From Candidatus Saccharimonadota bacterium (GTDB lineage Bacteria > Patescibacteriota > Saccharimonadia > CAILAD01 > BJGX01), in NCBI GenBank assembly GCA_046350735.1, contig JAXLZU010000001.1, positions 684,462-748,461 of the forward strand: a stretch of 64,000 nucleotides of DNA, given 5' to 3'. Position numbers and translations under genes: made by a program. A model generated the notes under the pieces. The model was not told the origin of the DNA, did not search any database, and saw nothing but the letters and a program-made list of their open reading frames with translations. Shown piece by piece: positions 3,001 to 31,291 of this stretch. The stretch's first letter is position 1. Each line of letters starts with the position of its first letter.

Positions 3001-3838
3001 TGGTGAGCCGATTGGCTCCACTGGTGCGCAGCGAAACAGCATAATTGTCATTGGTACCCATTGATACAGGTGCACCAAAACTATCTCCGCCATTATTTAG
3101 ACATGTAATACAGCCCGATGCATTACCCCAAGTAAGATTGCCATTGCCATCATTGGTTAGAAACCCTTGTTGTTGCGACGCTGGAAAACTGTAGAGAAGA
3201 TTGCCAAAGAGCACTGCAGCGGGTAAGCTTACTTGCCCAGTAAAGGTATTATTACCGGTAAATGTTTGGTTCTTATTGAGCAGTGCTACATTTGCACTCA
3301 AGCGAGCATCATTGAGCGTACCAGAAGTAATATTATTGGCATTTAAATTAGTAAGGTCAGCACCGCTACCATTAAATGTGTTTGCTGTAACCGACCCAGC
3401 AACTTGTGTATTGCCATTTACAATAACAAGGCCATTAGCATTTGCTACTTTGTTTGTATTTAAGCCAGCCAAATCTGTCGAAGTAACGGCAAACTGACCA
3501 CTCGACTTACTACCACCCTTATTTGTAAAGAAGAGCCAGCCACCCAACAGTAACAAAAATACTAATACTGCAACACCGGTATAAAACAACATACGCACCC
3601 ATCGAGTACGTTGCCAGGCAGAATGCTGCTTAATGGCTTGCTGACTGTTAGTAGAGGTGTGAGAGGCAGTATTATTAGTAAAAACTTCCTCACTTAGTGG
3701 AGATTGCTGGATTAGTCGAGAAGAAAAAAGTTCGTTAGAAATATTCTGTGAAGTCGGCGAATTACCGGCCTTTTCTTGACCGGAATTTGCATTGGCTGCA
3801 AAGTTACTTTTTGGATTATTTTCGGGTTTCACTGCCAC
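1..3838 (-). CDS. Giant membrane-anchored surface fibre/adhesin-like repeat protein, partial: the window holds its N-terminal 1270+ aa and the C-terminus lies before position 1. It has an N-terminal cytoplasmic tail, one TM helix (LFYTGVAVLVFLLLLGGWLFF), phage-tail-fibre-like GTLxxARLxxNVALLNxNQTFTG repeats and YadA-head/Hep_Hag-like SxAxG repeats. The start is ambiguous (TTG/GTG near 3830-3841, or ATG at 3592).
   Basis: I translated the minus strand by hand from 3838 to position 1 without meeting a stop. The ORF track misses it because the ORF runs off the window edge. The N-terminal tail plus TM are homologous to the 803-aa (24055..26466) and 503-aa (10695..12206) proteins. Composition is G/T/S/N/A-rich with repeats. 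Confidence 0.6.
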   Translation of the reverse strand, partial: MAVKPENNPKSNFAANANSGQEKAGNSPTSQNISNELFSSRLIQQSPLSEEVFTNNTASHTSTNSQQAIKQHSAWQRTRWVRMLFYTGVAVLVFLLLLGGWLFFTNKGGSKSSGQFAVTSTDLAGLNTNKVANANGLVIVNGNTQVAGSVTANTFNGSGADLTNLNANNITSGTLNDARLSANVALLNKNQTFTGNNTFTGQVSLPAAVLFGNLLYSFPASQQQGFLTNDGNGNLTWGNASGCITCLNNGGDSFGAPVSMGTNDNYAVSLRTSGANRLTISPTGSAVFTSTVTATQFFGNGAGLTNLDANNITAGTLDSARLPGAVTLQGNTFNGADQLVQLNALGYLPTLNGGNLTSLNASFVTSGTLADARLTANVALLDANQTFIGTNAFTQPITVNTLTPTGAMTIGVTGQNLSLRGNGSTSWTSTTGGFTTTVGFTGVPTGSVTYQFDAAATPGTYTICTTAGGACGGGGSGNVSTPGGTANTIPKFTAANTIGNSNISDNGTTVTIGGTTLVANATELRVNGAAGGYAIDATGDINAGTHLRVGGNIVCDSTGCNASGGGGFYIQNTTSQQSAANFFIQSSSTILPTGVIKQLGGQSSDLLQFQSSGGSTIAEVYTGGGFNTTDKYYVNGLQISSSNLSDGTNLAKLNANQAFTGNNSFTGTISQQNSVDSVHELQIINSGGTTLFNIDSTTNKVAIGSASASWPLDVTGDINSSTGLRINGVLVCDSSGCTSTSSGGINNGTITQVNANYNIQSSDVNAVVGVLKGKAAQVADLFQAQTSAGTPVFKVGQAGLTTINNGITLTGGNQTIQNNTGALNLTASSTTISLNNTTTITSGDGTGLQYAAHYAYQPFSLVDRNYVDNAISSIVIGACPTCFLNGGNTYGTAASLGTNDNYTLTIKTANTPRISIGTNGGVAMQGSTASGNYSTAAGASLASGDYSFAVGGGTASGLESFAGGYNVNPITASGRGSLAFGSSDNGAITAAGVGSFAGGNNASTGTNAHYSIAFGYSATTGTNAIASAAFNSGTATGAYSFAAGCSTASNDEAFSMGYCAFGGVTALVASGRGSFVGGFAQNGTVTAQADGSFAFGDNVAANNVNGTRSVAFGLGSRANATASMAVNAGQTSGDYSFAANYATASGTGASAFGSTLVTSSGGYSFAGGYANVAITSSNNGSFAFGRSGSYTISATGEGSFAIGASRDGAILASGLGSLAGGSNSTASNEFAIAFGNGTQATGAYSAAFNNARATNTGAFATGSGTASGAGSFAGGYISS

Positions 3839-3955
3839 CAATTTTACTTAATACAAAAACATCTCTAGGCACAAGGCACCTGTTATTATTCTAATGCTTT
3901 TAACTTGTTAGCACAAGAGTTTTGTAGATTAAATACTGTAATGTTTATTACAAAA

Positions 3956-6356
<2,401 letters not shown>

Positions 6357-6359
6357 TGG

Positions 6360-7775
6360 TTATGCCACTCCATCCTTTAACGTCTTGGCGATTAACTTGG
6401 TTACCACTTCGTCACTTTGAGGTTTATGAATAGGAAGCTTTTTCTGTACTAGTCGTTTTAATTTATCAATATCGAGCTGACCAGCGCCTTTATTTCCCAA
6501 CACAACTTCTATCATTGCTCTTTGTTGCGGCAAAGAGAAGAAATCATTTGGTTCTTGGCTAAGCGACTCTGTTAGTTGTCGTCCAATCTCTATCTCTTGC
6601 TGAGCAAAATCGCTCATCTGATCACTAAACCGTGTATACTCTTCGGCACTGCGAAAATTTGATAGTTCTTGCATAACCTTAGCCGAGAGCTGTTGCATGG
6701 TCGGATTTTGACTACGACCACCAATACGACTGACAGAGAGGTTAATATTAATTGCCGGCATTATACCACGACGTAATATTTCGGTATCAAACACAATTTG
6801 TCCGTCTGTCATAGAGATTAAGCTGGTTGCCTGATACCCGGTGAGATCGTTATTGGGCGTTGCACCTGCTACTAAAATAGTCTGGCTAAACCCAGTAGCT
6901 TTTAATTTGCCAGCTCGCTCTAAAAGAGCCGATTGCACGTGGAACATATCACCTGGGTAAGCCTCACGACCAGCATTATTACGAAGTAACAGTGACATTT
7001 CTCGGTAGAGTTTGGCAAAGTTAGAAAAATCATCATATAGCACTACTACATCTTTCTTTTGATGCCAGAAATACTCAGCTACCGCACAACCAGCGTATGG
7101 TGCTAATACACCAAGAGGCAATGATTCTCCGGCAACTGTTACCACGAGAGTGATGTGTTGCATTACCCCGGCTTTTTTAAAGACCTCTACTAGTCGATTA
7201 ACTTCAATGCGACGTTTGGCTATTAATACATATACTACCGATTTACCCGACTTAGCCTGTGCAATTGCTACTTGGGTCATAAACGAGGTTTTACCCGACT
7301 TACTATCTCCCATAATTGCAATGCGTTGACCTTTTACAATAGGGAGCAAGGTGTCTACATAACTCACACCAGTAACGAGCTGTTCGTTAAGATCGTCACG
7401 TTCTTGAAAATTAGGAGCACTGCGAAAATATGGTACTTGGCTACTGGTAGCAAGATAGCCTCGGCCATCAAGCGGTTTACCAAGTGGGTCGATAACTCTG
7501 CCAACAATACCTTTGCCTACTGGTAAGCTAATGCTTTCTGATTGCAACGCTACCAGCTCACCAGCTCGTACGGGCTGATTATTTAGCAGCAATATTTCTA
7601 GGCCATCTGTGTCTATTTGCCAAACCACCCCTCTTGCTCCACCAGCAAATACCACCTCTGCAAATACTGGTGCGCCAGCCAATGGTGTGGTGAGCACAAT
7701 ACATTCTCGTACTGCCACTACCTCGGCAGTAGCTTTAGTCTTGGTAACTCGTGTTTTTGGTTCTACCTTAGGCAT
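6360..7775 (-). CDS. atpA: F1-ATPase alpha-like subunit (copy 1).
   Basis: GQRIAIMGDSKSGKTSFMTQ (alpha P-loop), YVLIAKRR, LAPYAGCAVAEYF, VLYDDFSNFAKLYREMSLLLRNNAGREAYPGDMFHVQSALLERAGKL. These are near-canonical alpha motifs, including the arginine-finger region. Confidence 0.85.
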   Translation of the reverse strand: MPKVEPKTRVTKTKATAEVVAVRECIVLTTPLAGAPVFAEVVFAGGARGVVWQIDTDGLEILLLNNQPVRAGELVALQSESISLPVGKGIVGRVIDPLGKPLDGRGYLATSSQVPYFRSAPNFQERDDLNEQLVTGVSYVDTLLPIVKGQRIAIMGDSKSGKTSFMTQVAIAQAKSGKSVVYVLIAKRRIEVNRLVEVFKKAGVMQHITLVVTVAGESLPLGVLAPYAGCAVAEYFWHQKKDVVVLYDDFSNFAKLYREMSLLLRNNAGREAYPGDMFHVQSALLERAGKLKATGFSQTILVAGATPNNDLTGYQATSLISMTDGQIVFDTEILRRGIMPAININLSVSRIGGRSQNPTMQQLSAKVMQELSNFRSAEEYTRFSDQMSDFAQQEIEIGRQLTESLSQEPNDFFSLPQQRAMIEVVLGNKGAGQLDIDKLKRLVQKKLPIHKPQSDEVVTKLIAKTLKDGVA

Positions 7776-8211
7776 GTTGCAACCTTTCTACTAACTTTTC
7801 AGAATTTGCAAACAAGTTAGATCGCAATGACAAATCGTACACCTGCCCACTGGTGCGTAGCACACAGCCAGCCAGTAAATCGCTGTTTTGTGCAATATGT
7901 ATCATAGTGTGGGGATGAATATGTGAACGAAACCAACCAGTGAGTTCGTTTAACTCCTCGCCATTTGGCATACTGGCTACCACGAGTGAAATTTGCGGAC
8001 TCGATGATAATAATGCTTTTAGATAAGATACCAATTTGGCTTGCGTGGCAATTGTTAGACTACCAATCGCATTTGTCTGAGCAAATTCTTGCAAATGAGT
8101 GGGCCATTTTTGAGGCAAGACCAAAACAGCCGGCTTAAGTTTTTCTACCTCACTGAGTAATGCTTCTATTTGCTGAGAGCTAGAGAACGAATTGGGTAGT
8201 CTATACGCCAT
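7768..8211 (-). CDS. atpH: F-ATPase delta/OSCP-like subunit (147 aa).
   Basis: Position between b and alpha. C-terminal LLAGCVLRTSGQVYDLSLRSNL resembles the delta C-terminus (IIGGvvvrvGd.viDgSvrg.L). Overlaps alpha by 8 nt. Confidence 0.45.
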   Translation of the reverse strand: MAYRLPNSFSSSQQIEALLSEVEKLKPAVLVLPQKWPTHLQEFAQTNAIGSLTIATQAKLVSYLKALLSSSPQISLVVASMPNGEELNELTGWFRSHIHPHTMIHIAQNSDLLAGCVLRTSGQVYDLSLRSNLFANSEKLVERLQHA

Positions 8212-8768
8212 TATTTTACGCTTGCCTCAATATCTTTTTTGAGTGCATCTTTGTGTGCCTCGAGAGAAGAAAATAAATAGTCTTTTTGCTGTTGATAATC
8301 TATATTACCCGCAATATCAGCCATATAACCAATCATTATCTCGGCGATTTGGGAATCGACTTTCTTTATGGCATCAGCCTTGGCTTGTGCTGTTAATGCG
8401 TTAAGCTCGTTATGCGCTAGCTTGGTAGCAGCATCATTTTCTTTGGCAGTTGCCTGCAAATCGGCAACTGTTTGCTTTAGCAAAGACTGTGTAGCTACAC
8501 TAAACTCAGACAGCTGTTTTTGAGTAACCTGCTCTAATGATGTTATAAATGCCTTACTAATTTTATCGGCATTATTTTGTAATGACTTTTCTAGGCTAGC
8601 CGACTGGTTAGCTACAATAACATCAAACTCCCGTTTGGCTTTCGCAGAAGTAAGCTCGACACTATCTTTTTGCGAAGGCTTTTCTTTTTTATCCACCAAG
8701 ATAAGCAGACCAAATATTAGAGCTACAATTGCCAGAAATACACCAATTACTAAAATTATAAGATCCAT
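8211..8768 (-). CDS. atpF: F-ATPase subunit b-like peripheral stalk (N-terminal TM followed by a long charged coiled coil).
   Basis: MDLIILVIGVFLAIVALIFGLLILV is a TM helix, followed by a roughly 150-aa charged helical region. It lies immediately upstream of delta. Confidence 0.5.
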   Translation of the reverse strand: MDLIILVIGVFLAIVALIFGLLILVDKKEKPSQKDSVELTSAKAKREFDVIVANQSASLEKSLQNNADKISKAFITSLEQVTQKQLSEFSVATQSLLKQTVADLQATAKENDAATKLAHNELNALTAQAKADAIKKVDSQIAEIMIGYMADIAGNIDYQQQKDYLFSSLEAHKDALKKDIEASVK

Positions 8769-8769
8769 T

Positions 8770-9594
8770 TTACCCTCGAATTATTATTTTAATGATAACA
8801 AACGCCACTATAAAAATCACCGCAATCATTCCTACCACTTGTAACAAACTTAAGAAAATAGCGTTCTTTGCGGTTGGGTTACGGCCTATAGAGCGAATAC
8901 TGCTTGAGGCGCTAGAGTAGAGAATAACCAGCGAAACCACCACGGCAATTAAGATAATAATGGTTACCAAAATTGTTCTCTCGGTAGATACAGTTTTGCC
9001 ACTAGCACCATTCAGTATTTGCTGTAGTGGCAATAATACAGCCGGCACAGATGGTGAGCTAGACTGGTAATCACTAACGTTCACCACTACGGGTAGTAAA
9101 CGAATATTTGCAGTTGTAGTATTACCATCTTTAGCAGTTAGGACGCGAGTTTGAGTAGTCTGGTCTTTGCCTGCAGTAGCAAAACTTTGTGCTGCCGTAC
9201 CCAATACACGGGTTGACTGTGTAGCCTTCATTACAACCCCAGCAATTGGCGAAGCAGTAAGCTGATCGCCTACTTGTATCTCGCCATTAATATCGGTTGC
9301 AGCAACTTTGGCTTGTCCGTCTGTAATAATTGGGGGGCGTGCCGTGCCGCTAACATTTATCACCACATCGCTCGACCCTACTGCAACACCATACAGATAT
9401 TGCTCATTACCGGCCACAGCGAGACTAATTGTATTGTCTTTTAGTACCACCGCAGCACCAGCCACCACGTCTGGTTGTATTTGATACGACTGAGTAGATA
9501 GGCCTTCTGCCAAAACGGCAGCCGGAGTAAATAAGATTGCCAACGCAAAAAATACGGCAACGATGCGTGTATAACTATGGTTAATCCAACTCAT
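8770..9594 (-). CDS. Signal peptide, then a roughly 165-aa extracellular domain, fused to a C-terminal c-subunit-like helical hairpin (TM1-GRNP loop-TM2) that lacks the ion-binding carboxylate (Gln in its place). It occupies the atpE/atpB position of the operon.
   Basis: N-terminal MSWINHSYTRIVAVFFALAILFTPAAVLA-EG is a signal peptide. The C-terminal ...SIRSIGRNPTAKNAIFLSLLQVVGMIAVIFIV aligns with c-subunit ...[29 protein letters not shown]: the RQP/RNP loop and the MIAV segment are shared, and Q sits where D61/E sits. There is no D/E in either TM. A paralog lies at 30446..31291. Confidence 0.5.
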   Translation of the reverse strand: MSWINHSYTRIVAVFFALAILFTPAAVLAEGLSTQSYQIQPDVVAGAAVVLKDNTISLAVAGNEQYLYGVAVGSSDVVINVSGTARPPIITDGQAKVAATDINGEIQVGDQLTASPIAGVVMKATQSTRVLGTAAQSFATAGKDQTTQTRVLTAKDGNTTTANIRLLPVVVNVSDYQSSSPSVPAVLLPLQQILNGASGKTVSTERTILVTIIILIAVVVSLVILYSSASSSIRSIGRNPTAKNAIFLSLLQVVGMIAVIFIVAFVIIKIIIRG

Positions 9595-9699: not shown

Positions 9700-10701
9700 T
9701 TATGGTGTAACTGGAGAGGTATTTTTTAGCTGCTGAATATCTTTAGCTTGCTGCTGCACCATCTGAGTAAGCTTATCAATTTGATTCTGTTGGTCTTTGA
9801 GTTGCTGTGTATTCTCGTCTACCCGCTTCGTCAATGCCAGTAAGTCATCACTTAGGCTAGTAAGTTTAATACCTTGCTCAGAGAGTTGTTGGTTAGTTTT
9901 GTCTAAGTTACCGTTTTGTTCTTTTACTGCCTGGACAATATATGGCATTACACCCTCTTTATTTAGAGTTAGTGTTCCGTCTGGTAAAGTCGTTACCAAA
10001 TTTGGCAATACTTTGGCCACATCTTGAGCAATAAAACCAGCAACTTTATCACCTTCTGGGTTAACTTTCCAGTTGTAAGTAACTCCCTGAAGTTGATTAA
10101 TAACGTCTAGTCCATTAGAAATACTTAATATATTTGTTTTTAGTTTGGCATCTGAAACACAACTGAGCGAGCCTGCATTGGTGTCTACAGTACAAGTACC
10201 ACTCGTACCCGTAAAGCTAGCAGGTGTGTCGTCGCTCGTATCAGTAACATCAAGCTTGTTAGCGGGTGCGTTTGTACCAATACCAAATTTACCGCCAGAA
10301 ATATTCACCCAGCTATCATTACCCTTGTTATTTATTCGAGTATTTATGTTGCCAACACTATCAGAACCAATAAACGAATAGTCATATGGTCCGGCCCCAA
10401 CATCAGAAATAGTTGCACTATTACCAATAAATAATGAGTGATTTAACCCGCTAAGCGTGAGGTCTTGGCCTATTACCATACTGTAGTCTACATTAGTAAG
10501 GCTCGATGGTGTGACAGCTAGCGGATCGCTAGTGTCGACATTCAACAAATCTCGGTTGGAAGAATAGATGTTTGTCCATCGTGAATTTCCAACCAATCCT
10601 CCACTATCATGAATATCAAACCTAATATTATAGCCGGCATCACAACCAAATGGCCCCAAAGGAACATCATTATTACAGTAACCTCCATGCGTACCTACCA
10701 A
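9700..10701 (-). CDS. C-terminal part of a fibre protein carrying a Peptidase S74 / intramolecular chaperone auto-processing domain (CIMCD) and a C-terminal coiled coil. It is probably one gene with 10695..12206, disrupted by a frameshift.
   Basis: SDAKLKTNILSISNGLDVINQLQGVTYNWK matches the S74 CIMCD signature (S-D-x-x-L-K-x-N-I...L.GV.Y.W). The ORF track start is a TTG directly after the stop of the upstream ORF, in a frame offset by 1. Confidence 0.6.
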   Translation of the reverse strand: MVGTHGGYCNNDVPLGPFGCDAGYNIRFDIHDSGGLVGNSRWTNIYSSNRDLLNVDTSDPLAVTPSSLTNVDYSMVIGQDLTLSGLNHSLFIGNSATISDVGAGPYDYSFIGSDSVGNINTRINNKGNDSWVNISGGKFGIGTNAPANKLDVTDTSDDTPASFTGTSGTCTVDTNAGSLSCVSDAKLKTNILSISNGLDVINQLQGVTYNWKVNPEGDKVAGFIAQDVAKVLPNLVTTLPDGTLTLNKEGVMPYIVQAVKEQNGNLDKTNQQLSEQGIKLTSLSDDLLALTKRVDENTQQLKDQQNQIDKLTQMVQQQAKDIQQLKNTSPVTP

Positions 10702-12206
10702 TTCATTGCATTATTCACATCAGCTAGATGGATTCCACCATACAATCCACCTGAAGAATTTACAACAGATTCAACAATATTACCTGCACCGCCGTATATC
10801 CCATTAATTGAAACCGATCCCTGAAATCCTCCAGTAAAATGCGAAAGATTTTGAATAGTAGCAATACCTGCTATCGGACCATTTGCCATGATATTCGACC
10901 AACTACTATCAGTAATGTTGGTACTAAAGCCATTAATATTCGACCAGTCTACGTTGTCTAATCCTAATACAAAACCTGTTGCATTTGTATTGGTGGTATC
11001 TGAAGCCGTTACAGATACACCTGTCATAGCTGAACGAGTAGTATTGGTAATGTTTATATCACTACCAATAAATGCACTGTCTGAAACTCCGCTAAGGTTT
11101 ATGTTCGAACCGTTAGCAGTAACTCTAGATAGGTTTAACAAAGTTCCATTATTAGCCTGAATTATTGAAGTATCAACATTTGTTGCACTTCCAGCATTGA
11201 TTCTTATGAGACTATTTAGTCCAAAATTAATAGTAGAATTACCTTGTAGACCAACAATAGCATTACTACTATTAGTAATACTACTTCCTCCGTCTGCTCC
11301 ACCCAGTATATTTGAACTATCAGTAACCGTAAGGTTACCACCAAAACTACCAAATTGACCCATTAGGTTACTAGAGCCATTTACTGTAGCTCCAACAAAC
11401 TGGCCTACCATTCCGTATCCACCGGTAATATTGCTTCCAAGACTATACAATAGATTGTAGCCTGTACCATTTAGCGTTGAGTTGTGTGCCCAACCAATAT
11501 TGTAGCTAGAGTCAATAATAGTTGCCGATTCGGTTTGTAAAATATTAGCACTAGAATTAGTAAATGTTGAAGCACCTGGGGCAAAACCCCCTGTTGGAAT
11601 TACGAAATTACTATCAGATGTACCGCTAAAGCTTGATTGCCCAAAACCACCCACCGTGGCCAGTTTGTTTGGGATAATGTTTCCAAGTGCATCGATTTTT
11701 AATGAATTAGTACTAGCCGTAACTACTTGCAGATCTTGATTATCTAAAGTACCGAGCTGTGCTGTAGCTCCGTAGCTGTTACCATTTTGGCAAAAATATG
11801 TGCCAGCAACTACACATGGATCGGTCGGGCCCGATGGACCAGTTGGACCAGTAGATCCAGCTATGCCCGGCGTACCCTTAGAACCATTAGCTCCAGATGG
11901 TCCCGGTTGACTATTAACATTGAGTGGTAATGTTATAGAGTTACCACCAGAAATACTGAGCTCATTACCATTTAACGAAAGTACAGACATATTCTTAGGC
12001 TGATTGCCGCTAATAGTAGTTTCGTTACACAGCACATTGTTCAAACCTAACAAACGAATATACCACACATCAGTACAGAGACCACGCAGTATAATGAGTA
12101 TAAGTAAAAATACTACAGCAAGACCAACTAGTAGCCAAAACAACCACCAATGAGAATTGCTATTGTGCTGCTCGCCCTGAACAGAATTTTGTCCTGGTTG
12201 ATCCAT
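10695..12206 (-). CDS. N-terminal part of the fibre protein: cytoplasmic tail, TM helix, collagen-like G-x-x repeats (GPSGANGSKGTPGIAGSTGPTGPSGPTDP), and beta-helix-like N/S/T/G repeats.
   Basis: TM is HWWLFWLLVGLAVVFLLILIILRGL. It is homologous in architecture to the 803-aa protein at 24055..26466. It ends at a TAG one nucleotide out of frame with the 333-aa ORF. Confidence 0.55.
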   Translation of the reverse strand: MDQPGQNSVQGEQHNSNSHWWLFWLLVGLAVVFLLILIILRGLCTDVWYIRLLGLNNVLCNETTISGNQPKNMSVLSLNGNELSISGGNSITLPLNVNSQPGPSGANGSKGTPGIAGSTGPTGPSGPTDPCVVAGTYFCQNGNSYGATAQLGTLDNQDLQVVTASTNSLKIDALGNIIPNKLATVGGFGQSSFSGTSDSNFVIPTGGFAPGASTFTNSSANILQTESATIIDSSYNIGWAHNSTLNGTGYNLLYSLGSNITGGYGMVGQFVGATVNGSSNLMGQFGSFGGNLTVTDSSNILGGADGGSSITNSSNAIVGLQGNSTINFGLNSLIRINAGSATNVDTSIIQANNGTLLNLSRVTANGSNINLSGVSDSAFIGSDINITNTTRSAMTGVSVTASDTTNTNATGFVLGLDNVDWSNINGFSTNITDSSWSNIMANGPIAGIATIQNLSHFTGGFQGSVSINGIYGGAGNIVESVVNSSGGLYGGIHLADVNNAMNW

Positions 12207-12278: not shown

Positions 12279-12977
12279 TTAGTTAATAAAATCTTTTAGA
12301 TCTTGCCAAGAAGAGCTAGCGGCACTTTCGTTATAATTGGGCCGGCCTGGCTGAAAGTATGCATGACCAGCGCTATATTCTTTGGCCAAGTAGGACACAT
12401 TAGCGCTTTTTAGCTCTTGCTTGGTCTTATCTCTATCTTCTTCGGGAATTGACTCATCTTGCGTGCCATAAAAAGATAAGACCTTTAAAGTTGGGTCATT
12501 TTTGCGCGCATTTACCAAGACTTCTATTGGTGTTTGTGCTTGATAATAGTCTGGTGTATGTGCTCCTGCCCCATAGAACGATACAATTTTAGTTACCGCC
12601 TGTTCTGTGCCGGTTAAGTAAGCTAGGCAGCCCGCAAAACAAAAACCTATTACACAAATCTGTTTAATACTCGGATTTTCCTGACGAATAGCGTCTACGG
12701 CTTTATTAAATGCTGGCACAAAATCTTCACCACGCATTTTCTGCATTAAACTAACAGCTTCATCAATCTCTTCTGGTGAGAATTTGTTTGTAGCGCCAGT
12801 AAGTGTATAGAAGTAGTCAAACATATACACCGGCTTTTGTAGTACTTTGGCAAATTCTTGCATAGTTGCCATTGCATAATCGGTAATACCAAATATATCT
12901 GGCATTAGAATTATTGCCATACTGTTGCCAGTTAATTTGTTATTGATATCTGCCTGGTAGATAAACGGGCTGTTCAT
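12279..12977 (-). CDS. Dienelactone hydrolase family protein.
   Basis: VIGFCFAGCLAYL (DLH nucleophile Cys motif) and C-terminal GHAYF. 232 aa. Confidence 0.6.
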   Translation of the reverse strand: MNSPFIYQADINNKLTGNSMAIILMPDIFGITDYAMATMQEFAKVLQKPVYMFDYFYTLTGATNKFSPEEIDEAVSLMQKMRGEDFVPAFNKAVDAIRQENPSIKQICVIGFCFAGCLAYLTGTEQAVTKIVSFYGAGAHTPDYYQAQTPIEVLVNARKNDPTLKVLSFYGTQDESIPEEDRDKTKQELKSANVSYLAKEYSAGHAYFQPGRPNYNESAASSSWQDLKDFIN

Positions 12978-13124
12978 AGTTCTATTTTACCACGTAGCGA
13001 AATTGACATTACTAGAACACAAAAGATATACTGCAAGTGTCTAACGGGTGTAATACCCAGAGGAGGAAACTTTCGCAACTGTGTTTGGCTCGTGGTGCCC
13101 AAAAGCACCAGAGGGAGAAACGCC

Positions 13125-13436
13125 ATGTCTCGGCGGACGAAACGTCAGACCCGTACAGAGCTCTTGGAGGCAAAAGTAGCACGCCGGCTCGAGAAGGGAT
13201 ATCGGTTTCATCACGTTGCCCTCAATGGCAGCGTAATGCCTGTTTTGGCTCGGAACAGCGTAGATGCACTAAGTTTGTTTAATCTTTGGGTGGGGAAGCC
13301 CAAAAATTACGACCTTGGCTACAGCAGTGGTAATTGTGCTATCGTATGTGTTAGCGATGCTATACCCTCTCAATTCTGTATGTTTGTTGGCCGGCGCAAC
13401 CGAATGGCCTGCGTACGACAAGTTGTCTTGGTGTAG
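13125..13436 (+). CDS. Small basic hypothetical protein (R/K-rich N-terminus) in a GC-rich segment. Start placed at the ATG preceded by GAGGGA.
   Basis: The ORF track gives 13092..13436. An internal ATG at 13125 has a Shine-Dalgarno-like gaggga 8 nt upstream. A strong terminator hairpin follows the stop directly. Local GC is noticeably above the window average. Confidence 0.4.
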   Translation: MSRRTKRQTRTELLEAKVARRLEKGYRFHHVALNGSVMPVLARNSVDALSLFNLWVGKPKNYDLGYSSGNCAIVCVSDAIPSQFCMFVGRRNRMACVRQVVLV

Positions 13437-13442
13437 ATTATA

Positions 13443-13466
13443 CCTCGAGGAAACTCGAGGATTTTT
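13443..13466 (+). terminator. Rho-independent terminator: cctcgag-gaaa-ctcgagg followed by a T-run.
   Basis: Perfect 7-bp stem with a GAAA loop, followed by ATTTTTA. Confidence 0.5.
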
Positions 13467-13501
13467 ATGTCTTAGATAAATCTGTGCTATCTGGCTAATG
13501 G

Positions 13502-13530
13502 TTGAAAGAACTGCAAAAATGCGCTACAAT
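13502..13530 (+). promoter_or_regulatory. Sigma70-like promoter (TTGAAA -35, 17-nt spacer, TACAAT -10) upstream of the tRNA-Ile / tRNA-Ala pair.
   Basis: ttgaaa gaactgcaaaaatgcgc tacaat, about 30 nt upstream of the tRNA-like fragment and about 140 nt upstream of tRNA-Ile. Confidence 0.45.
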
Positions 13531-13558
13531 ATGCAAGTTACTTTTGATCAATTCAAAA

Positions 13559-13585
13559 GGGCGCGCAGCTCAGATGGCGAGAAAT
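13559..13585 (+). repeat. Degenerate copy of the first 20 nt or so of tRNA-Ile (gggcgcgCagctcagatggC...). It does not fold into a tRNA.
   Basis: It matches gggcgcgtagctcagatggt of the real tRNA-Ile 110 bp downstream. The rest diverges and no cloverleaf is possible. Confidence 0.4.
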
Positions 13586-13669
13586 GCGTAGCATTTATCC
13601 ATAAACAACAGCTGCGCTCGAATATAGCAAACTTTATAAGTCGTATAGTGTAGAAAATCCCGTAAACGC

Positions 13670-13746
13670 GGGCGCGTAGCTCAGATGGTTAGAGCGCGTC
13701 ACTGATAATGACGAGGTCCCTGGTTCAATTCCAGGCGTGCCCACCA
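13670..13746 (+). tRNA. tRNA-Ile (anticodon GAT), CCA encoded.
   Basis: Cloverleaf read by hand: acceptor GGGCGCG/CGTGCCC, D-arm GCTC-AGATGGTTA-GAGC, anticodon arm CGTCA-CTGATAA-TGACG, T-arm CCTGG-TTCAATT-CCAGG, then ACCA. Confidence 0.9.
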
Positions 13747-13764
13747 GAAAAATATTTACAATAC

Positions 13765-13841
13765 GGGGCATTAGCTCAGCTGGCTAGAGCACCTGCTTTG
13801 CAAGCAGGGGGTCCGGGGTTCGAATCCCCGATGCTCCACCA
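13765..13841 (+). tRNA. tRNA-Ala (anticodon TGC), with the G3:U70 identity pair and CCA encoded.
   Basis: GGGGCAT...GCTC-AGCTGGCTA-GAGC...CCTGC-TTTGCAA-GCAGG...CGGGG-TTCGAAT-CCCCG-ATGCTCC-A-CCA. Confidence 0.9.
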
Positions 13842-13919
13842 TGAATTTATTTGTATCTTAAAGCAACCACCATTAATGCTGGTTTGCTCCTAATTACGAC
13901 TTCGCACAGTCGCATACCC

Positions 13920-14810
13920 ATGTCAACATCCAGCTCATACCATTCAAAGGAAACCCCTGATTCAGTAATCGCATACCAAAGACTCAAGGCTATAACTGAC
14001 GCCGTCTATTCTGGGTCTAAAACAGACTATGGCAAAGATGTGCTGGCCCTCCTCAAAAGCTTCAACATTAGTCCGCGACAAGATGATGGACAGCTAAAGG
14101 CTGTAAATATCTCAATACCAAGTTCCATCTCGGATTCGATAGTGGTGGGCTTGAGGTACGTTAAGAAAGACGGGACTGACACCGAAGATCACTTCCTATT
14201 CAGGAAGGGTGAAAACTTGCGGGCGTTCTATAAAGACGGATTTGAAAAATACGCCCGTGAGTACGCCGGCGCACACAAAGAACAGACTAAAGAGAGGTCT
14301 GAGCCAGTAACCCCTGAGTACGCCGCCTGGATCTACTTGAATTTAGATCTAGCCAAGATCAGTTATGCGCTTGATTGTTACGATCAAATTTTTGAAATTG
14401 TTAATGTTCGAGATGATGCATACAACCTAGCTCTCCAAATACTTCTAGACAGCCTATCGTCCTCAATTGTTGTTGGACTTGCTAGATACTTTGAGAAGAG
14501 AAAAGACAGTTGGGGCCTAGACAAACTTGGAGTTTCAACAAAAGAAGTTTGCGAGCTCAAAGAGAAGTATGACGAATTGATGGAACTACGTCATTCACAG
14601 TTGTCACATCTCAAGAAAGGCAAAGAGTCTAAGTATCAATTCTTCTTCCTAAGCGACAGAGGCACAGAGCTCGCTAGAGAGTTGGTCCAAGAAGTCCATA
14701 AAATGTTGTCTGAAATTGGACGAACGGAATACTCTGGTCAATCCTATGCGCTTACATGGGCGGGAGCAGATACCTCTCTCGAATTGCTGATTGAAAGGCT
14801 TAAGGGATAA
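13920..14810 (+). CDS. Hypothetical protein (about 297 aa from the internal ATG) in the GC-elevated islet next to the tRNAs.
   Basis: The ORF track gives 13851..14810 with a TTG start overlapping the tRNA-Ala 3' end. The first ATG is at 13920 (MSTSSSYHSKE...). No recognisable family. Confidence 0.4.
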   Translation: MSTSSSYHSKETPDSVIAYQRLKAITDAVYSGSKTDYGKDVLALLKSFNISPRQDDGQLKAVNISIPSSISDSIVVGLRYVKKDGTDTEDHFLFRKGENLRAFYKDGFEKYAREYAGAHKEQTKERSEPVTPEYAAWIYLNLDLAKISYALDCYDQIFEIVNVRDDAYNLALQILLDSLSSSIVVGLARYFEKRKDSWGLDKLGVSTKEVCELKEKYDELMELRHSQLSHLKKGKESKYQFFFLSDRGTELARELVQEVHKMLSEIGRTEYSGQSYALTWAGADTSLELLIERLKG

Positions 14811-14858
14811 TTGCGAGCCTTGGCTTTTCCTTGCATCGGCGCGACAATAGATCGTGTA

Positions 14859-15101
14859 ATGCCAAAGTCAGACACCAAACAACCAGGCAAAGATCACTTC
14901 CGTATTCGTCGAGTACGCCAAGAGCTTTATCACGTCACTGATAATCACCACTTTGTGGAGTATCGGACGAGTGATCCCTCACTCTTTCGGCCGAGCAAGC
15001 AAGTCATCCTGAAGCCGACGTACAAGAAAGACGTTGACATGCAGCAACTAGCCGACGCCCTGCTCCGCCTCCTGGAAGACATGAATCAGGATTCTGAATA
15101 G
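14859..15101 (+). CDS. Small hypothetical protein (start uncertain; the ORF track gives 14811).
   Basis: ORF directly after the previous gene, GC about 50%. No recognisable motifs. Confidence 0.3.
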   Translation: MPKSDTKQPGKDHFRIRRVRQELYHVTDNHHFVEYRTSDPSLFRPSKQVILKPTYKKDVDMQQLADALLRLLEDMNQDSE

Positions 15102-15207
15102 AATTCAGTATTTCAAGTAATTTCATGTTTTCTTGTTATCTGTCTGTGTTTGAAAGCTGCGCGATTAGCTCCACCAAAAGAGACTCAAACATGGGTCTTT
15201 TTTTGTT

Positions 15208-15567
15208 TTATCGCTGTTTACATTCTCCAATTATCTTATCTAGGGCTAATTTTGTTTCAATAGATTGTGGATCTGCATCAAATTTTTTGGCCTGGTCGTA
15301 TGTATATTTCTGTTTTAATAGCCTATATATACAACTACAATCAGAAGATGAGCTACCCTGAGCTTGACAGCTGGTTAGGAAATTATTTTCGAACTCCTTT
15401 GTGTAGCCCGTGTCTTTATATATATCTTCTAACTTAATATCAATACCTATCGCCAAAACAAAGAAACCCACGATACAGAAAAGAATAATTGCCCACTTAA
15501 CGAGTTGGTGATTCTTCTTTAGTGTTTTAGTGCTTGGCTTATCTGCTATATCATCTGTTGTTGTCAT
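15208..15567 (-). CDS. Hypothetical membrane protein (one TM, Cys-containing C-terminal domain).
   Basis: 119-aa ORF with TM WAIILFCIVGFFVLAIGI. Confidence 0.4.
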   Translation of the reverse strand: MTTTDDIADKPSTKTLKKNHQLVKWAIILFCIVGFFVLAIGIDIKLEDIYKDTGYTKEFENNFLTSCQAQGSSSSDCSCIYRLLKQKYTYDQAKKFDADPQSIETKLALDKIIGECKQR

Positions 15568-15644
15568 ACGTCTTTACTGTAACATATCTGTCGAGTTGGA
15601 TTACAAAAAAATTTCTGATTGAAGTATGTTAGAATATTACTTAT

Positions 15645-15900
15645 GCTTGGTTCGATATTTCTTGGTCTACTTATGATAGTTATTGGTGTTGTAATTGTGG
15701 TGTTTCGACGCAATATTTATAACTTTACCGGCTACATTGACTTCGTAGAAGGTTGGTTCCCCGGGGGAACAAATACGTTTATTCTTTTTTTTGGTCTAGC
15801 CCTTATCTTAATTGGCATTTTCTTTGTTACAGGAATAGGCAACTCTATTACTGCACCAATTACCGACCAACTAAAAGCTGTATTTGGTGGCGTAAAATAA
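15645..15900 (+). CDS. Small hypothetical membrane protein (two TMs). Start is the ATG at 15645, or the TTG at 15619 as in the ORF track.
   Basis: MLGSIFLGLLMIVIGVVIVVF... is hydrophobic. A terminator hairpin follows. Confidence 0.35.
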
Positions 15901-15918
15901 TATAGACAATCTCTACAC

Positions 15919-15949
15919 AAAAAGCACTCAAATAATTCGAGTGCTTTTT
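15919..15949. terminator. Bidirectional rho-independent terminator hairpin (aaagcactc-aaataatt-gagtgcttt) between the small + strand gene and the 3' end of the minus-strand 16S rRNA.
   Basis: 9-bp perfect stem, flanked by A-runs and T-runs. Confidence 0.5.
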
Positions 15950-16127
15950 GTTATTGATCTGTAAAATGTGTCAGCAGACAGTTGTAAATTTGCCCTAACA
16001 ATAGTTAGAGATCGACCTAGAAGTAATCGCAGAATTGGCAGGAGCGACTCAATACATTGAATGCTCAACTACTTTTTCTGGCCTCGACTCTAATGTTCGA
16101 GGAATGCATTGCTGCATTGTTTCTCCC

Positions 16128-17672
<1,545 letters not shown>

Positions 17673-18103: not shown

Positions 18104-18940
18104 TTAGCGTTTTTTGCCGGCTTTTTTAAGCCAAGCTTCTTTTTTAAGTTCGTGTACAGGCTTTTTGTTTGATTTAACAGTTTGAACAAGTTGTATTACA
18201 CAGAAAATTACACCAGCGAGCCATACCAAACCAATAAATACAAAACTAAATAAACCATACGGATAAGAAACATTTTCATAATAAAGAAACGCTAGTATGG
18301 CAACGAGTAAGCTTGCGCCTAAATTAGTACAGAGTAAATAAAAGTTATAGCTAGTGGCTTTTTTTACCCGCTTGTATAGCGACTGAATTACAAAGAAAAC
18401 TACTACACTAATTAATGCAAAACCACCGGCTGCTATCATAATTGCTTTGGCTTGTGGAGCAGCGAGAGCAGTATTAAACACATTAAAGTAAGGAAACACT
18501 GTTTGATAACCAAACAAACAGGCAATAACAAACCCTAGAATAGAACCAATAACTACCTCGAGTGGTTTGTGGCCCAATATTTCTCGCATTTGGCTGTAGT
18601 CGTCAGCATTCTTTAACCCGCCAGTCTTAGAAAGATCGGCAATTAATTTATTAATGGTTTTGGCTTGTTCTCCAGCACTACGACGCACACCAAAGCTATC
18701 ATACATAACGATAGCGGCTAGCACTGCAGCAAACCCAAAGAGCGGATTGTTGGGGCCGCCTGCAATTAATGCCCAAGTAGCAAGACTAGTAACTACCGCC
18801 GAATGTACCGAGGGCATACCTCCACTTGCGTACAAATAACGCAAATCTACATCACCACGAACTAATGCTAAGAAAAACTTAATAGCCTGAGCCACTGCCC
18901 AAGTTACAAACGGAACTATCAAATAAAACGTTACATTCAC
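18104..18940 (-). CDS. Divergent PAP2-family (YuiD/DUF212-like) membrane phosphatase-related protein with a C-terminal extra TM region.
   Basis: Motifs GGMPSVHSA, FGVRRSAGEQA and GHKPLEVVIG fit the divergent PAP2 family. Multiple TM segments. Confidence 0.55.
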   Translation of the reverse strand: MNVTFYLIVPFVTWAVAQAIKFFLALVRGDVDLRYLYASGGMPSVHSAVVTSLATWALIAGGPNNPLFGFAAVLAAIVMYDSFGVRRSAGEQAKTINKLIADLSKTGGLKNADDYSQMREILGHKPLEVVIGSILGFVIACLFGYQTVFPYFNVFNTALAAPQAKAIMIAAGGFALISVVVFFVIQSLYKRVKKATSYNFYLLCTNLGASLLVAILAFLYYENVSYPYGLFSFVFIGLVWLAGVIFCVIQLVQTVKSNKKPVHELKKEAWLKKAGKKR

Positions 18941-26852: not shown

Positions 26853-28184
26853 TTACGTGCCCGCCAAAATTTCTTCTACACCCGCAAGCATATCCTCACG
26901 CGACACATACTCACCATCATTGCCAGTAAGTGGCTGCACAACAAACAAATTCTGAGCAAAGTATGCTACTAGGCGCTTAGCCTTTTGATAATCACTCCTA
27001 TCATTAAGAGAGAGCTCGCCCTCACCTATAATCGAGATAATGTTACGAAGCTCATTGTATTTGCTGAGTATTGCCTGTACCTGGGTAGCCAAAATATAAT
27101 GCCGTTCGCCAACAATCTCGGTCGTTAGCAAAGAAGACTGAGTAGCCAATAAATCAATTGCCGGAAAGATGCCTCGCTCCATTACATCACGACTAAGTAC
27201 AATTACCGAGTCGAGTTGTTGATAAATTTCTACTACTGCAGGGTCGCTAATATCATCGGCTGGGATATAGATAGATTGTACCGACGTAATTGATCCATTC
27301 TCGTTGCTATCTAGGCTGTCTTCAAATCGTACAAGATCGGTAAATAGAGTAGGCTGATAGCCACCCTCAGATGGTTGCTCACCCAGCATTATAGAGAGTT
27401 CATTACGCGCTTGTAAGAATCGGTAGATATTATCAACGAAGAAAAGTACATCTTGTTTTTGATTGTCTCGCCACCACCGTGCAGCTGCAGCGGCAGTTGG
27501 CCCTACCATACTCCTGGCGGCTGCCGACTCATTCATTTGCCCCAAATACATAACGCTTTCTTTGAGGAGATTTGCTCCCTTGAGATTTTCATAAAGCTCA
27601 TGTGCTTCGCGAATGCGCTCACCAATACCCACAAAGAATGATGCACCAGCACCAGTCTGACTTACATTGTGCATTAACTCAGTTACTAGCACTGTTTTGC
27701 CTACGCCTGCCCCACCAATAATTCCAATTTTTCTCCCTTTAACAAATGGTGCAAAGAAATCAATGGCTTTTATGCCAGTCTCAATAATCTCCCCTGAGTA
27801 TGTCTGTGCATTTTTGGGGGCTAGCGCAAACTCAACAGGAGCGGTCTGAACCTTTTTAATAGCTGCAGAATCATCGAGCGTTTCACCCAGAGAGTTAAAT
27901 ACTCGACCAAGTGTAGATTTGCCTACTGGTATTTGTAGCTGTTCTTGGTAGAGCTCGCAGAATGATCCGAGTGGTAAGGCAGCATCCCCACCAATACTTA
28001 GTACAACTGCCTTGGTAGCACCACTATAGCCTAGTATCATTAATCGCGAATGTTGGTCGTTAGCCACTCGCAAAATAGAACCAATTTTCGGTAAAATCTC
28101 ACCAAATTCTAACTCATAGGTAATACCGCGAGCGGCAATTATTTTTCCCCGGGCAGGTGATTTACTTACGTGATTATGCTTCAT
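26853..28184 (-). CDS. F1-ATPase beta-like catalytic subunit (copy 2).
   Basis: [76 protein letters not shown]. Confidence 0.85.
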   Translation of the reverse strand: MKHNHVSKSPARGKIIAARGITYELEFGEILPKIGSILRVANDQHSRLMILGYSGATKAVVLSIGGDAALPLGSFCELYQEQLQIPVGKSTLGRVFNSLGETLDDSAAIKKVQTAPVEFALAPKNAQTYSGEIIETGIKAIDFFAPFVKGRKIGIIGGAGVGKTVLVTELMHNVSQTGAGASFFVGIGERIREAHELYENLKGANLLKESVMYLGQMNESAAARSMVGPTAAAAARWWRDNQKQDVLFFVDNIYRFLQARNELSIMLGEQPSEGGYQPTLFTDLVRFEDSLDSNENGSITSVQSIYIPADDISDPAVVEIYQQLDSVIVLSRDVMERGIFPAIDLLATQSSLLTTEIVGERHYILATQVQAILSKYNELRNIISIIGEGELSLNDRSDYQKAKRLVAYFAQNLFVVQPLTGNDGEYVSREDMLAGVEEILAGT

Positions 28185-29032
28185 ATAAGCCCCTCTCTAT
28201 CTCTTACAAATACTCGTGTAGCGGCATCTCGGTTTTGGCGCTGCTGCCTACGATAACTTCTATATACATCAGATTTTAGCTCGCCCGCCGCGGTAGAAGC
28301 AGAGCTCATTGCACGAAATCTACTAGCCAGTTGAGCCAGACGCGATTCTAAGATTAATTCAGTTAGTGCGGTGGCACGCATCATACTTTCTAGATAGGTT
28401 ACTACCTCCTCAAGAGAAGGCTCAAATATATAGTCTGATGCAAAAATAAGTGTCGTATTGGTTTTATTAGCCTCGGCCTCACTAAGCCTTGCTATACCAC
28501 CCACCAATTCAAACACCTGAACTTGTTGGGTCGTTAAATTAATAAACTGCTCAAAATATACCACGCATGTCCGATAATCTTGAGTGGCTGAAATAATTGG
28601 CACAACGTTAACGGGCCTAGTGATATCTGGTAATGGATAAACTCTGGTAGGTATTACACCTTTATTGCGCAATAATTTAGCGCCTTTTTTACCAATTACA
28701 TAAAAGTCTGTGGTTTGTTCATTTACCGAACCAAGTACTTCGTCCACCAGTTCTTCGTCAATACTGCCAGACAGTGTATCTTCTGAGCTAATAAGAATAA
28801 CAGCTGTACGATTAAGACTGCGAGTAGGTAGCAAGCTAGCCACAGGCGAGTTGGCATCTACACGCAACTGTACATACATACTCCAGAGCTCGTGAAAAAA
28901 GTCGCGACTAGCAACTACACGGTCACGTATCTGACGAATCTGAATACTGGTAATACTCTCAAAAACCTTTGTAACCTCTTCGATGGTTTCTAGGTCGGTA
29001 TACTGACGGTACATTTCTTGGCTTTTACTCAT
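28181..29032 (-). CDS. F1-ATPase gamma-like subunit (copy 2).
   Basis: 283 aa between alpha-like and beta-like. Paralog of 5520..6356 with the same N-terminal pattern (TKVFESITSIQIRQIRDRV versus THIFENVASIRIRQIKEQV). Confidence 0.6.
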   Translation of the reverse strand: MSKSQEMYRQYTDLETIEEVTKVFESITSIQIRQIRDRVVASRDFFHELWSMYVQLRVDANSPVASLLPTRSLNRTAVILISSEDTLSGSIDEELVDEVLGSVNEQTTDFYVIGKKGAKLLRNKGVIPTRVYPLPDITRPVNVVPIISATQDYRTCVVYFEQFINLTTQQVQVFELVGGIARLSEAEANKTNTTLIFASDYIFEPSLEEVVTYLESMMRATALTELILESRLAQLASRFRAMSSASTAAGELKSDVYRSYRRQQRQNRDAATRVFVRDREGLI

Positions 29033-30456: not shown

Positions 30457-31291
30457 TTATTAAATATACTATTGAGAATCCAGAAAGCATAATTACCACT
30501 ACTGCAATAATTACTTGAATTAAACTTTGTAAAATAGAATGTCGACTAAGTGGATTTCGCCCTATAGAGCGTATGCTGCTTGCTACTGCGGTATAAAGAA
30601 TAAGTACTGAGATAACTACCGATATAAGCAACACCAATAACGCCAAGAGTGCCCTAGCTGTTGAAATACTCTTGCCCGTTGTACTTGTGGCCACAGCTTG
30701 CACTGCCGAAATAATTCCATTACCAGTAAGTGTTGGTTGGTTTTGATAATTACCCACTATAATGTTGGCCGAGACCTGGCCTAGAGCTACTTCACTCGTC
30801 TCGCCTTTCTTATTGGTAATACTTTGACGAGAAGTGGCATTACCTGCACTAAAACTATTCGTTGCAGTACCAACAATTTTACCCGCAGCAGTAGCTTTCA
30901 TGGCAACACCTGCTATAGGCGATGTAGTCAGCGAGTCTCCTTTGGCAATATCACCATTTATATTACTTACCAATATTACAGCATTGCCCGCAGTAACCAC
31001 TAAGGTATTGCCATTGTTAGAATTAAGATTTACTAGGCTGGCCTGAGAGGCAACTGTCACCCCCAATAAATTATCGGTGTTACTCGAGTTAGCTGGAATA
31101 ATTTGCGAGCTACTACCCTGTTGAAGCGCCACCAAAGAACCGGCTGGAATGGCAGAAGATGCAGTGTAGCTCTGACTAATAGTATCAGCTCTAGCAGCTA
31201 GTATTTGTATCGCAACAAATACTAACGACAAGACAAGACTAGCAACTGGGAGAAAATATTTTTTTAGCATACCAAAAACCATTCGCCTCAA
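30446..31291 (-). CDS. Signal peptide, extracellular domain, then a c-subunit-like hairpin with Gln at the carboxylate position (copy 2 of 8770..9594).
   Basis: ...VASSIRSIGRNPLSRHSILQSLIQVIIAVVVIM. The IRSIGRNP loop is identical to copy 1. The middle domain shares ING(D/E)I..GD.LT.SPIAGV.MKAT...GTA..SF with copy 1. No D/E in the TM helices. Confidence 0.5.
   Translation of the reverse strand: MRRMVFGMLKKYFLPVASLVLSLVFVAIQILAARADTISQSYTASSAIPAGSLVALQQGSSSQIIPANSSNTDNLLGVTVASQASLVNLNSNNGNTLVVTAGNAVILVSNINGDIAKGDSLTTSPIAGVAMKATAAGKIVGTATNSFSAGNATSRQSITNKKGETSEVALGQVSANIIVGNYQNQPTLTGNGIISAVQAVATSTTGKSISTARALLALLVLLISVVISVLILYTAVASSIRSIGRNPLSRHSILQSLIQVIIAVVVIMLSGFSIVYLIIGR

Follow-up and report, generated by a model that had tools for sequence, protein, structure and literature searches.

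A stretch of 64,000 nucleotides from a Candidatus Saccharibacteria metagenome-assembled genome (MAG), referred to here as the window, carries neighbouring genes for tRNA-Ile(GAT) and tRNA-Ala(UGC), and comparison with related loci shows that 1,335 bp have been inserted at the 3' end of the tRNA-Ala gene, with the last nine bases of this gene being duplicated. The best overall explanation, to which we assign a probability of roughly 60%, is that a small islet entered via the tRNA-Ala 3' end carrying p296, a gene for a 296-residue protein, and that the left part of the region is native. A preliminary description of the sequence had instead taken the whole span 13037-15101 as one decayed integrative islet that brackets the tRNA pair, with a truncated tRNA-Ile copy at 13559 as its scar.

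Insertion at the 3' end of tRNA-Ala(UGC)

Relatives were collected by a DUF212-anchored search, which gave 26 Saccharibacteria loci, and by exact look-ups of homologues of p103 (the protein encoded to the left of the tRNA pair), which added three loci. Four loci served as close relatives for the site comparison: L005, with a 16S ribosomal RNA (rRNA) gene 99.5% identical to that of the window, L030 and L032, which come from the same assembly, and L031, which shares its MAG with L004 (partial 16S matches to the window of 100% and 96.9%). L018, L021 and L024 are more distant relatives, with 16S identities of 83-85%.

The pairwise alignment to L005 is colinear over 12978-13841 and breaks right after the CCA of tRNA-Ala. 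In blastn, homology to L005, L030 and L032 stops at 13841 and restarts at 15168, a position that aligns 9 nt inside the tRNA-Ala 3' ends of these three relatives. A perfect 9-bp direct repeat, GCTCCACCA, is found at 13833-13841 and 15168-15176 on the same strand; it corresponds to the acceptor strand plus CCA of tRNA-Ala, and the chance of nine identical bases exactly at the breakpoint is ~4e-6. In-silico removal of 13842-15176 affords a base-for-base alignment with the tRNA-Ala-to-terminator junction of all four close relatives, the reconstructed empty site reading ...CCCCGATGCTCCACCA directly followed by AAAGAGACTC... In each of these relatives the site is uninterrupted, tRNA-Ala leading directly into the terminator and p119: a homologue of the 15176-15203 terminator abuts the tRNA-Ala CCA in L005, L030 and L032, and L031 exhibits another hairpin plus T run in its place. 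A MAG chimera does not explain the junctions, because an independently assembled Logan contig (in 4 samples) spans 13794-16150, and hence both junctions, at 100% identity. On this comparison the right-hand copy of GCTCCACCA is the real insertion scar. The features concerned are as follows:

13765-13841, plus strand: tRNA-Ala(UGC), the insertion target, intact (ARAGORN; RF00005, 69.7 bits)
13833-13841, plus strand: left direct-repeat copy GCTCCACCA, the last 9 nt of tRNA-Ala
13842-15176, plus strand: lineage-specific 1,335-bp insert, right repeat copy included
13920-14810, plus strand: p296, cargo gene, N-domain plus probable HEPN_AbiU2-like domain
14859-15101, plus strand: p80, an 80-residue open reading frame (ORF) of doubtful coding status within the insert
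14933-14948, plus strand: 15/16 copy of the tRNA-Ile anticodon stem-loop, within the insert
15168-15176, plus strand: right direct-repeat copy GCTCCACCA, the displaced original tRNA-Ala 3' end
15176-15203, plus strand: ancestral tRNA-operon terminator, now parted from tRNA-Ala by the insert

The same comparison bears on the direction of the change, as the segment could have been ancestral at the site and deleted in the relatives via the 9-bp repeats, rather than being a recent gain of the window lineage; one precise loss would suffice if the four relatives form a single sister clade. We consider this very unlikely: a p296 homologue is found in none of the relatives' loci, the distant L018, L021 and L024 included, a duplicated tRNA 3' end arises only by insertion, the insert is atypical in composition, and the full-length homologues of p296 lie in unrelated contexts. 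Were the ancestral presence of the segment to be true, it would alter only the timing of the insertion and not its nature.

With regard to composition, the G+C (GC) content of the whole window is 41.7%. The preliminary description had estimated 50-57% by eye for 13037-13440 and 13850-15100, which agrees with the measured value for the first segment (50.5%, z 2.3, top 2% of same-size windows) but not for the second (45.3%, z 1.5, top 5%); the complete span 13037-15101 reaches 46.5% (top 1%). When RNA genes are masked, the true insert 13842-15176 has a GC content of 44.6% (top 6.5%) and an atypical tetranucleotide usage (z 3.2, top 1.1% of the window), the only windows with higher tetranucleotide scores being those that include part of the 16S gene or come from the first ~2.5 kb. 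GC content at third codon positions (GC3) is 0.45-0.58 within the insert vs 0.26-0.35 in its native neighbours. The proposed composition check bears out the atypical nature of the insert, whilst the GC elevation is weaker than had been stated. Foreign DNA at a tRNA gene together with a partial tRNA duplication, as had been proposed, was indeed found, but for the right part only, where four relatives are empty, and the insert lies downstream of the tRNA pair rather than on both sides of it.

Cargo of the insert

p296 encodes an intact protein of 296 aa and is the only intact gene assigned to the insert. Just two full-length homologues (~52% identity, other genomic contexts) were found among 5.8 billion proteins, and searches of the whole protein against Pfam, PADLOC, PHROGs and NCBIfam returned only a sub-threshold HEPN_AbiU2 match (PF18734: 15-18 bits, E 0.002-0.014, below the cut-off of 26.8). 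A profile made from p296 and the two full-length homologues retrieved 151 proteins, nearly all of which cover either positions 9-116 or positions 125-290 of p296. The former are stand-alone proteins of 110-140 aa or are fused to unrelated C-termini, and the latter are stand-alone proteins of 170-190 aa; since either half is also found on its own in other proteins, p296 is a two-domain fusion, with an N-domain (~residues 9-116) followed by an HEPN_AbiU2-like domain (~125-290).

For the C-terminal half, 11 of 21 relatives match Pfam HEPN_AbiU2 at E <= 0.01 (best E 1.1e-8), and one of these relatives, P0012, which the profile search links to p296 with an E of 7.6e-40, is the one above the gathering score with 27.5 bits on PF18734. 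R224 and H230 of p296 (LRHSQLSH) are the only invariant R and H in the alignment of the 21-member family and form an R-x5-H motif, R-x4-6-H being the catalytic motif of HEPN ribonucleases (RNases; PMC3710099). On the basis of these transitive profile matches and the motif, it is probable that the C-terminal half of p296 belongs to the HEPN_AbiU2-like family, and p296 is probably a toxin or abortive-infection-type RNase in which the N-domain would sense or restrain the RNase domain. Like the AbiU2-family HEPN proteins (Anantharaman et al. 2013, PMC3710099), the C-domain carries an invariant R-x5-H, its relatives score on PF18734, and the gene resides in a horizontally acquired islet; the C-domain may also share their all-helical bundle fold. 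In contrast to that family, p296 stays below the Pfam threshold, is fused to an unmatched N-domain, matches no PADLOC system and lacks the listed operon partners, namely Sel1-repeat genes and restriction-modification operons (PMC3710099).

The N-domain is alpha+beta and was modelled at a predicted local distance difference test score (pLDDT) of ~95; it has no match in Pfam, NCBIfam, PADLOC or PHROGs, nor a structural match, and thus its combination with an HEPN_AbiU2-like domain is an architecture without library match. PADLOC gave no match for the multi-domain relatives of the N-domain or for the HEPN relatives either, and the p296 family is absent from the viral contigs searched. Further proteins combine the N-domain with various C-terminal regions that are unrelated to one another (P0059, P0065, P0071). 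At another locus, L035 (7376-11202), a stand-alone homologue of the N-domain lies downstream of a tRNA-Gln 3' end among small toxin-antitoxin-sized genes, adjoining a 171-aa protein that resembles a WYL domain by eye; two stand-alone N-domain genes from a metagenome scan are situated near tRNA-Gln, and no tRNA fragment repeats were found there or at L035.

For p80, no homologues were found among the 5.8 billion proteins, phages gave only noise at E = 1, and there was nothing significant in Pfam, PADLOC, PHROGs or NCBIfam; the ORF has 50% GC and a GC3 of 0.58, and gene calling on the Logan contig did not pick it up. The tRNA-Ile anticodon stem-loop copy within it (CGTCACTGATAATcAC, 15/16, 0 expected in shuffles) has a similarity that stops at ~16-21 nt (extension by eye) and could be a relic of an earlier tie of the element to a tRNA-Ile gene, or chance.

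Native left segment and the tRNA-like leader element

The left-hand GC-rich segment tells a different story. The gene order in L005 is DLH (dienelactone hydrolase) / p103 / promoter / tRNA-Ile / tRNA-Ala / terminator / p119 / p93 / 16S, and from DLH to 16S this order is largely kept in L030, L031 and L032. The features of the locus outside the insert are:

12279-12977, minus strand: DLH
13003-13032, plus strand: promoter-like site of the p103 gene (TTGACA, 18-nt spacer, TATACT; 11/12 matches), native
13037-13124, plus strand: 5' leader of the p103 gene with two hairpins and an upstream AGAGGAGGAA box, native
13125-13436, plus strand: p103, a 103-aa basic protein, native, clade-restricted orphan
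13443-13460, plus strand: p103 terminator (CCTCGAGG GAAA/loop CCTCGAGG, then T run)
13502-13530, plus strand: promoter-like site of the tRNA-Ile/tRNA-Ala operon (TTGAAA, 17-nt spacer, TACAAT), kept in L005, L030, L031 and L032
13559-13619, plus strand: 61-nt element, apparently derived from tRNA-Ile and tRNA-like, in the operon leader, conserved in L005 and L032
13670-13746, plus strand: tRNA-Ile(GAT) (ARAGORN, Rfam)
15208-15567, minus strand: p119, native small membrane protein and right-hand syntenic neighbour, 56% identical to the L005 homologue; its gene is called beside tRNA-Ala in L031 and L032
15619-15900, plus strand: p93, native small membrane protein, 86% identity in L005, also in L021, L024 and L018
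16131-17676, minus strand: complete 16S rRNA gene (Rfam), convergent with the tRNA operon
18104-18940, minus strand: DUF212 gene

All four close relatives encode, in the interval from DLH to tRNA-Ile, an orthologue of p103 with 71-83% identity. These orthologues have a GC content of 45-50% in genomes of 41-43% GC, and because the orthologues are GC-rich too, the raised GC belongs to the p103 gene and does not mark a recent arrival. Both promoter hexamers of p103 are invariant in five genomes, and its CCTCGAGG palindromic terminator is present in 4/4 relatives. This synteny shows that p103, its promoter, leader and terminator are native and unconnected with the insert. An old acquisition of p103 by the ancestor of the clade is possible, given a GC3 of 0.43-0.51 vs 0.26-0.35 in neighbouring genes. 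The p103 family has only six members among the 5.8 billion proteins, with one more distant member in another context; p103 has no significant match in Pfam, PADLOC, PHROGs or NCBIfam, and no fold was assigned.

Across five genomes the leader of p103 shows high conservation, with the AGAGGAGGAA box being invariant ~60 nt before the start codon. A GGG-loop-CCC hairpin keeps its pairing through compensatory changes, and a second hairpin, just before the real Shine-Dalgarno sequence, covaries (GGTGC..GCACC in the window, AGCAC..GTGCT in L030). There is no Rfam match for this leader; its conserved hairpins suggest translational regulation.

The truncated copy of the tRNA-Ile 5' end at 13559-13577 had been placed ~110 bp upstream of the intact gene and is real: 18/19 bases match, with none such in 100 shuffles, and the spacing is 111 nt from start to start. 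These bases are the first 19 nt of a 61-nt element that is found at the same position in three of five genomes (window, L005 and L032), is missing in L030 and L031, and is better conserved than the surrounding spacer. Its consensus fold comprises 20 pairs, including a 7-bp acceptor-like stem formed by 5' GGGCGCG and 3' CGCGCTC, and in L032 a single compensatory change from G-C to C-G turns the internal hairpin AAATGC/GCATTT into AAATCC/GGATTT. The element is recognised by neither ARAGORN nor Rfam and lies downstream of the conserved tRNA-operon promoter. We read it as a remodelled tRNA-Ile paralogue kept in the operon leader. The fragment is not an insertion scar, because it is present in insert-free genomes and lies only 92 nt from the intact gene.

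With this, the single decayed islet spanning 13037-15101 becomes highly implausible. It would account for the tRNA-Ile fragment, for both segments being above the window GC mean, for the raised GC3 of p103 (0.51) and for the small p103 family. On the other side, 12978-13841 is colinear with the relatives, in four of which p103, promoter, leader and terminator are syntenic, the tRNA-Ile fragment occurs without the insert in L005 and L032, and a fragment and an intact gene 92 nt apart bound no island. The preliminary description had named conservation of the same genes at this locus across the lineage as the observation that would speak against foreign DNA, and for the left segment such conservation is what we found. 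Its other elements fared better: the tRNA pair lies at 13670-13746 and 13765-13841, both on the plus strand, the three ORFs measure 103, 296 and 80 aa, the basic protein is followed by a terminator-like hairpin (13443-13460), no integrase is visible in the flagged ORFs or in ten further size-appropriate ORFs of the window, and p103 and p80 remain unassignable, as all three proteins had been said to be, the exception being the C-terminal half of p296. The case is a caution on method: reading GC by eye treated a native gene specific to the clade and a real insertion as one unit, and chose the wrong tRNA scar, the actual scar being the tRNA-Ala 3' fragment.

Mechanism of insertion

The extreme 3' end including CCA, according to what Williams is said to have described in 2002, is one of the tDNA (tRNA gene) crossover sublocations. 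In the islet reading, the most likely route is site-specific recombination, in which the 3' end of the tDNA would have crossed over with a matching site carried by a circular element, catalysed by a recombinase that acted in trans or has since been lost; 1.3 kb is too small to have held an integrase plus p296. As the insert precedes the ancestral terminator, with no terminator-like site found inside it between tRNA-Ala and 15176-15203, it is probably transcribed by read-through, transcription of p296 from the tRNA promoter 13502-13530 being the simplest expectation. The 3' end of the transfer-messenger RNA (tmRNA) gene, at 61571-61579 of the window (minus strand), carries the same 9-mer and is hence a potential second target, since it shares GCTCCACCA with the tRNA-Ala end; no duplicated fragment was seen near the tmRNA.

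Several observations weigh against such an islet. The direct repeat is only 9 bp long, and tDNA islands usually exhibit longer identity blocks and measure several kb or more; a duplication of 9 bp would fit a target duplication left by transposition, or joining at microhomology, just as well. Within the insert, p296 and p80 gave no integrase match in Pfam, PADLOC, PHROGs or NCBIfam, and no integrase or recombinase was present among ten size-appropriate ORFs elsewhere in the 64-kb window (Pfam scan). Regarding a donor element, the metagenome scan gave nothing but N-domain genes that stand alone, none with an HEPN gene beside it, and the predicted circular (attP) junction ...GCGCGATTAGCTCCACCATGAATTTATT... 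was not found in viral contigs; insert DNA had no match to plasmids. An empty-site strain variant was not found, exact p119 and p103 look-ups giving the same contig or contigs that end before tRNA-Ala. In islands catalogued under Islander-type criteria, an integrase gene is present (PMC4383910). Finally, no Shine-Dalgarno sequence is evident by eye upstream of p296, the expression of which is thus putative.

Illegitimate, microhomology-mediated recombination, for example following DNA uptake, could have produced the structure if a circularised fragment underwent a single crossover at a chance 9-bp match. The short identity block, the small size of the insert with little besides one gene, and the lack of an integrase in the insert or in the ten window ORFs tested all fit this, and the 9-mer, being also the tmRNA 3' end, is likely to recur on foreign DNA with tRNA-Ala/tmRNA-like ends. 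However, tDNA-specific integrases are what produces a cut precisely at the mature 3' end by which the tRNA plus CCA is restored, and nine bases are little for RecA-independent joining with such a clean product; we regard this route as unlikely but still live.

A non-autonomous transposable element, with GCTCCACCA as the 9-bp target-site duplication generated by a transposase in trans, is in our view improbable. The repeat is perfect, 9 bp is a common target-duplication length, and the insert encodes no recombinase; against this, the repeat scan revealed no terminal inverted repeats pairing the insert ends at 13842 and 15167, there was no transposase match among the tested ORFs, and no second copy of the 1.3-kb element was found in the window or in any of the loci compared. 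Furthermore, the join falls exactly at the end of the tRNA gene with the tRNA being preserved, which is typical of integrases and not of transposases.

Comparison with known systems

The accepted signature of a tDNA island is a regenerated tRNA or tmRNA gene plus a displaced fragment (Hudson, Lau & Williams 2015, PMC4383910). The insert resembles Islander tDNA islands in its intact tRNA, in the cognate 3' fragment in direct orientation at its far end, in the empty site of relatives, in its atypical composition and in its defence-like cargo; it differs from them in having no integrase, a size of 1.3 kb only and a fragment of only 9 bp. A second point of comparison is provided by the cis-mobilizable elements (CIMEs) and decayed island remnants, which consist of DNA flanked by attachment (att) sites, lack recombination genes and are mobile only with an integrase in trans. 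Like CIMEs, the insert is bounded by att-like 9-bp direct repeats with no recombinase inside; no cognate helper or integrase was found in the ten window ORFs or in the viral and metagenome scans, and its mobility is putative. We found no description of CIME-like elements in Saccharibacteria in the literature, and little on mobile elements or defence genes in this group.

The insert behaves like an ordinary integrase-less tDNA islet, or like a cis-mobilizable remnant, with a probable HEPN-type defence or toxin gene. The phenomenon is well known and the islet does not overturn current understanding; its value lies in a horizontal gain seen at single-base resolution in the genome of an ultra-small episymbiont.

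Surroundings of the locus

The setting of the islet, and not the finding itself, is a genome with unlinked rRNA. In the window no 23S gene is found within 64 kb, nor is one present 3-10 kb downstream of 16S in those relatives that reach that far (16S-23S linkage was examined in the window and in L005, L018, L013, L014, L021 and L024). In the window, L005 and L018, the tRNA-Ile/tRNA-Ala pair is encoded on the strand opposite to 16S, at a distance of 2-3.4 kb downstream of it, and L021 and L024 have the pair on the 16S strand; a promoter and a terminator of its own accompany the pair in the window and in L005. Interpretation of the GC-rich segments as degraded 16S/23S beside spacer-type tRNAs was rejected, as no such fragment was picked up by Rfam even with the threshold at E <= 1. 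Unlinked rRNA genes have been described before for bacteria of the candidate phyla radiation (CPR; Lui et al. 2021, PMC8172020; Brewer et al. 2020). As in those bacteria, the 16S of the window is not followed by 23S, and the spacer-type tRNA pair survives as a separate unit. Both Saccharimonadia genomes in Lui et al. 2021 had operonic rRNA (PMC8172020); in contrast to these, rRNA is not operonic here and the tRNA pair lies on the strand opposite to 16S, behind a promoter of its own.

A ~105-nt repeat (...GCAAGAGAATGAAATTCTATTTGTTAAATC...GCTGAAGCAATT...GCGAAAGCTGACAGATTGTTTTGACGA) occurs in L031 (10440-10550 and 10650-10756) and L032 (2270-2381) and is absent from the window. In L031 its copies run right up to the 5' base of tRNA-Ile and to that of tRNA-Ala, and in L032 its copy runs up to that of the tRNA-like element. 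The fold consists of two hairpin domains, both conserved, with a single compensatory change; Rfam, searched with the L032 copy only, gave no match. In L021, a 176-aa ORF lies within the 780-nt spacer from tRNA-Ile to tRNA-Ala (3483-4262), and more small ORFs are found between tRNA-Ala and DLH (4339-5400). The Ile-Ala spacer measures 129 nt in L031 vs 18 nt in the window. Given the L021 ORFs and the long L031 spacer, the orphan tRNA pair looks like a recurrent site of small insertions. Taking the tRNA-like leader element, the ~105-nt modules 5' of tRNAs in relatives and the differing small ORFs around the pair in L021 together, one could go further and see the 1.3-kb unit as a minimal integrase-less cassette that targets the GCTCCACCA end of tRNA-Ala/tmRNA and is expressed by read-through from the tRNA-operon promoter, with the orphan tRNA-Ile/tRNA-Ala operon as a cassette-capture platform; we would regard this as a long shot.

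Although the genome is reduced, two apparent F-type ATP synthase clusters are present in the window, at 4207-9594 and 26853-31291. For the second, Pfam confirmed two genes; the first appears to be such a cluster, judging by how large its genes are and by ATP synthase genes that Pfam annotates upstream of DLH in L030 and L031.

The near identity of the 16S genes of the window and L005 (6079-7621 in the latter) stands against 56-86% identity for flanking proteins and 73-84% for flanking DNA, a contrast that may reflect protein divergence in this clade that is unusually fast compared with rRNA, a 16S co-assembly artefact in one MAG, or rRNA exchange.

To the left of DLH (9700-12206), the window encodes two large secreted or surface-type proteins: one contains a Peptidase_S74 (endosialidase chaperone) domain, and the other a collagen-like Gly-X-Y stretch plus long Asn/Ser/Gly-rich repeats. 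In the relatives these are replaced by proteins of other size and domain content, which makes this a second variable spot beside the locus.

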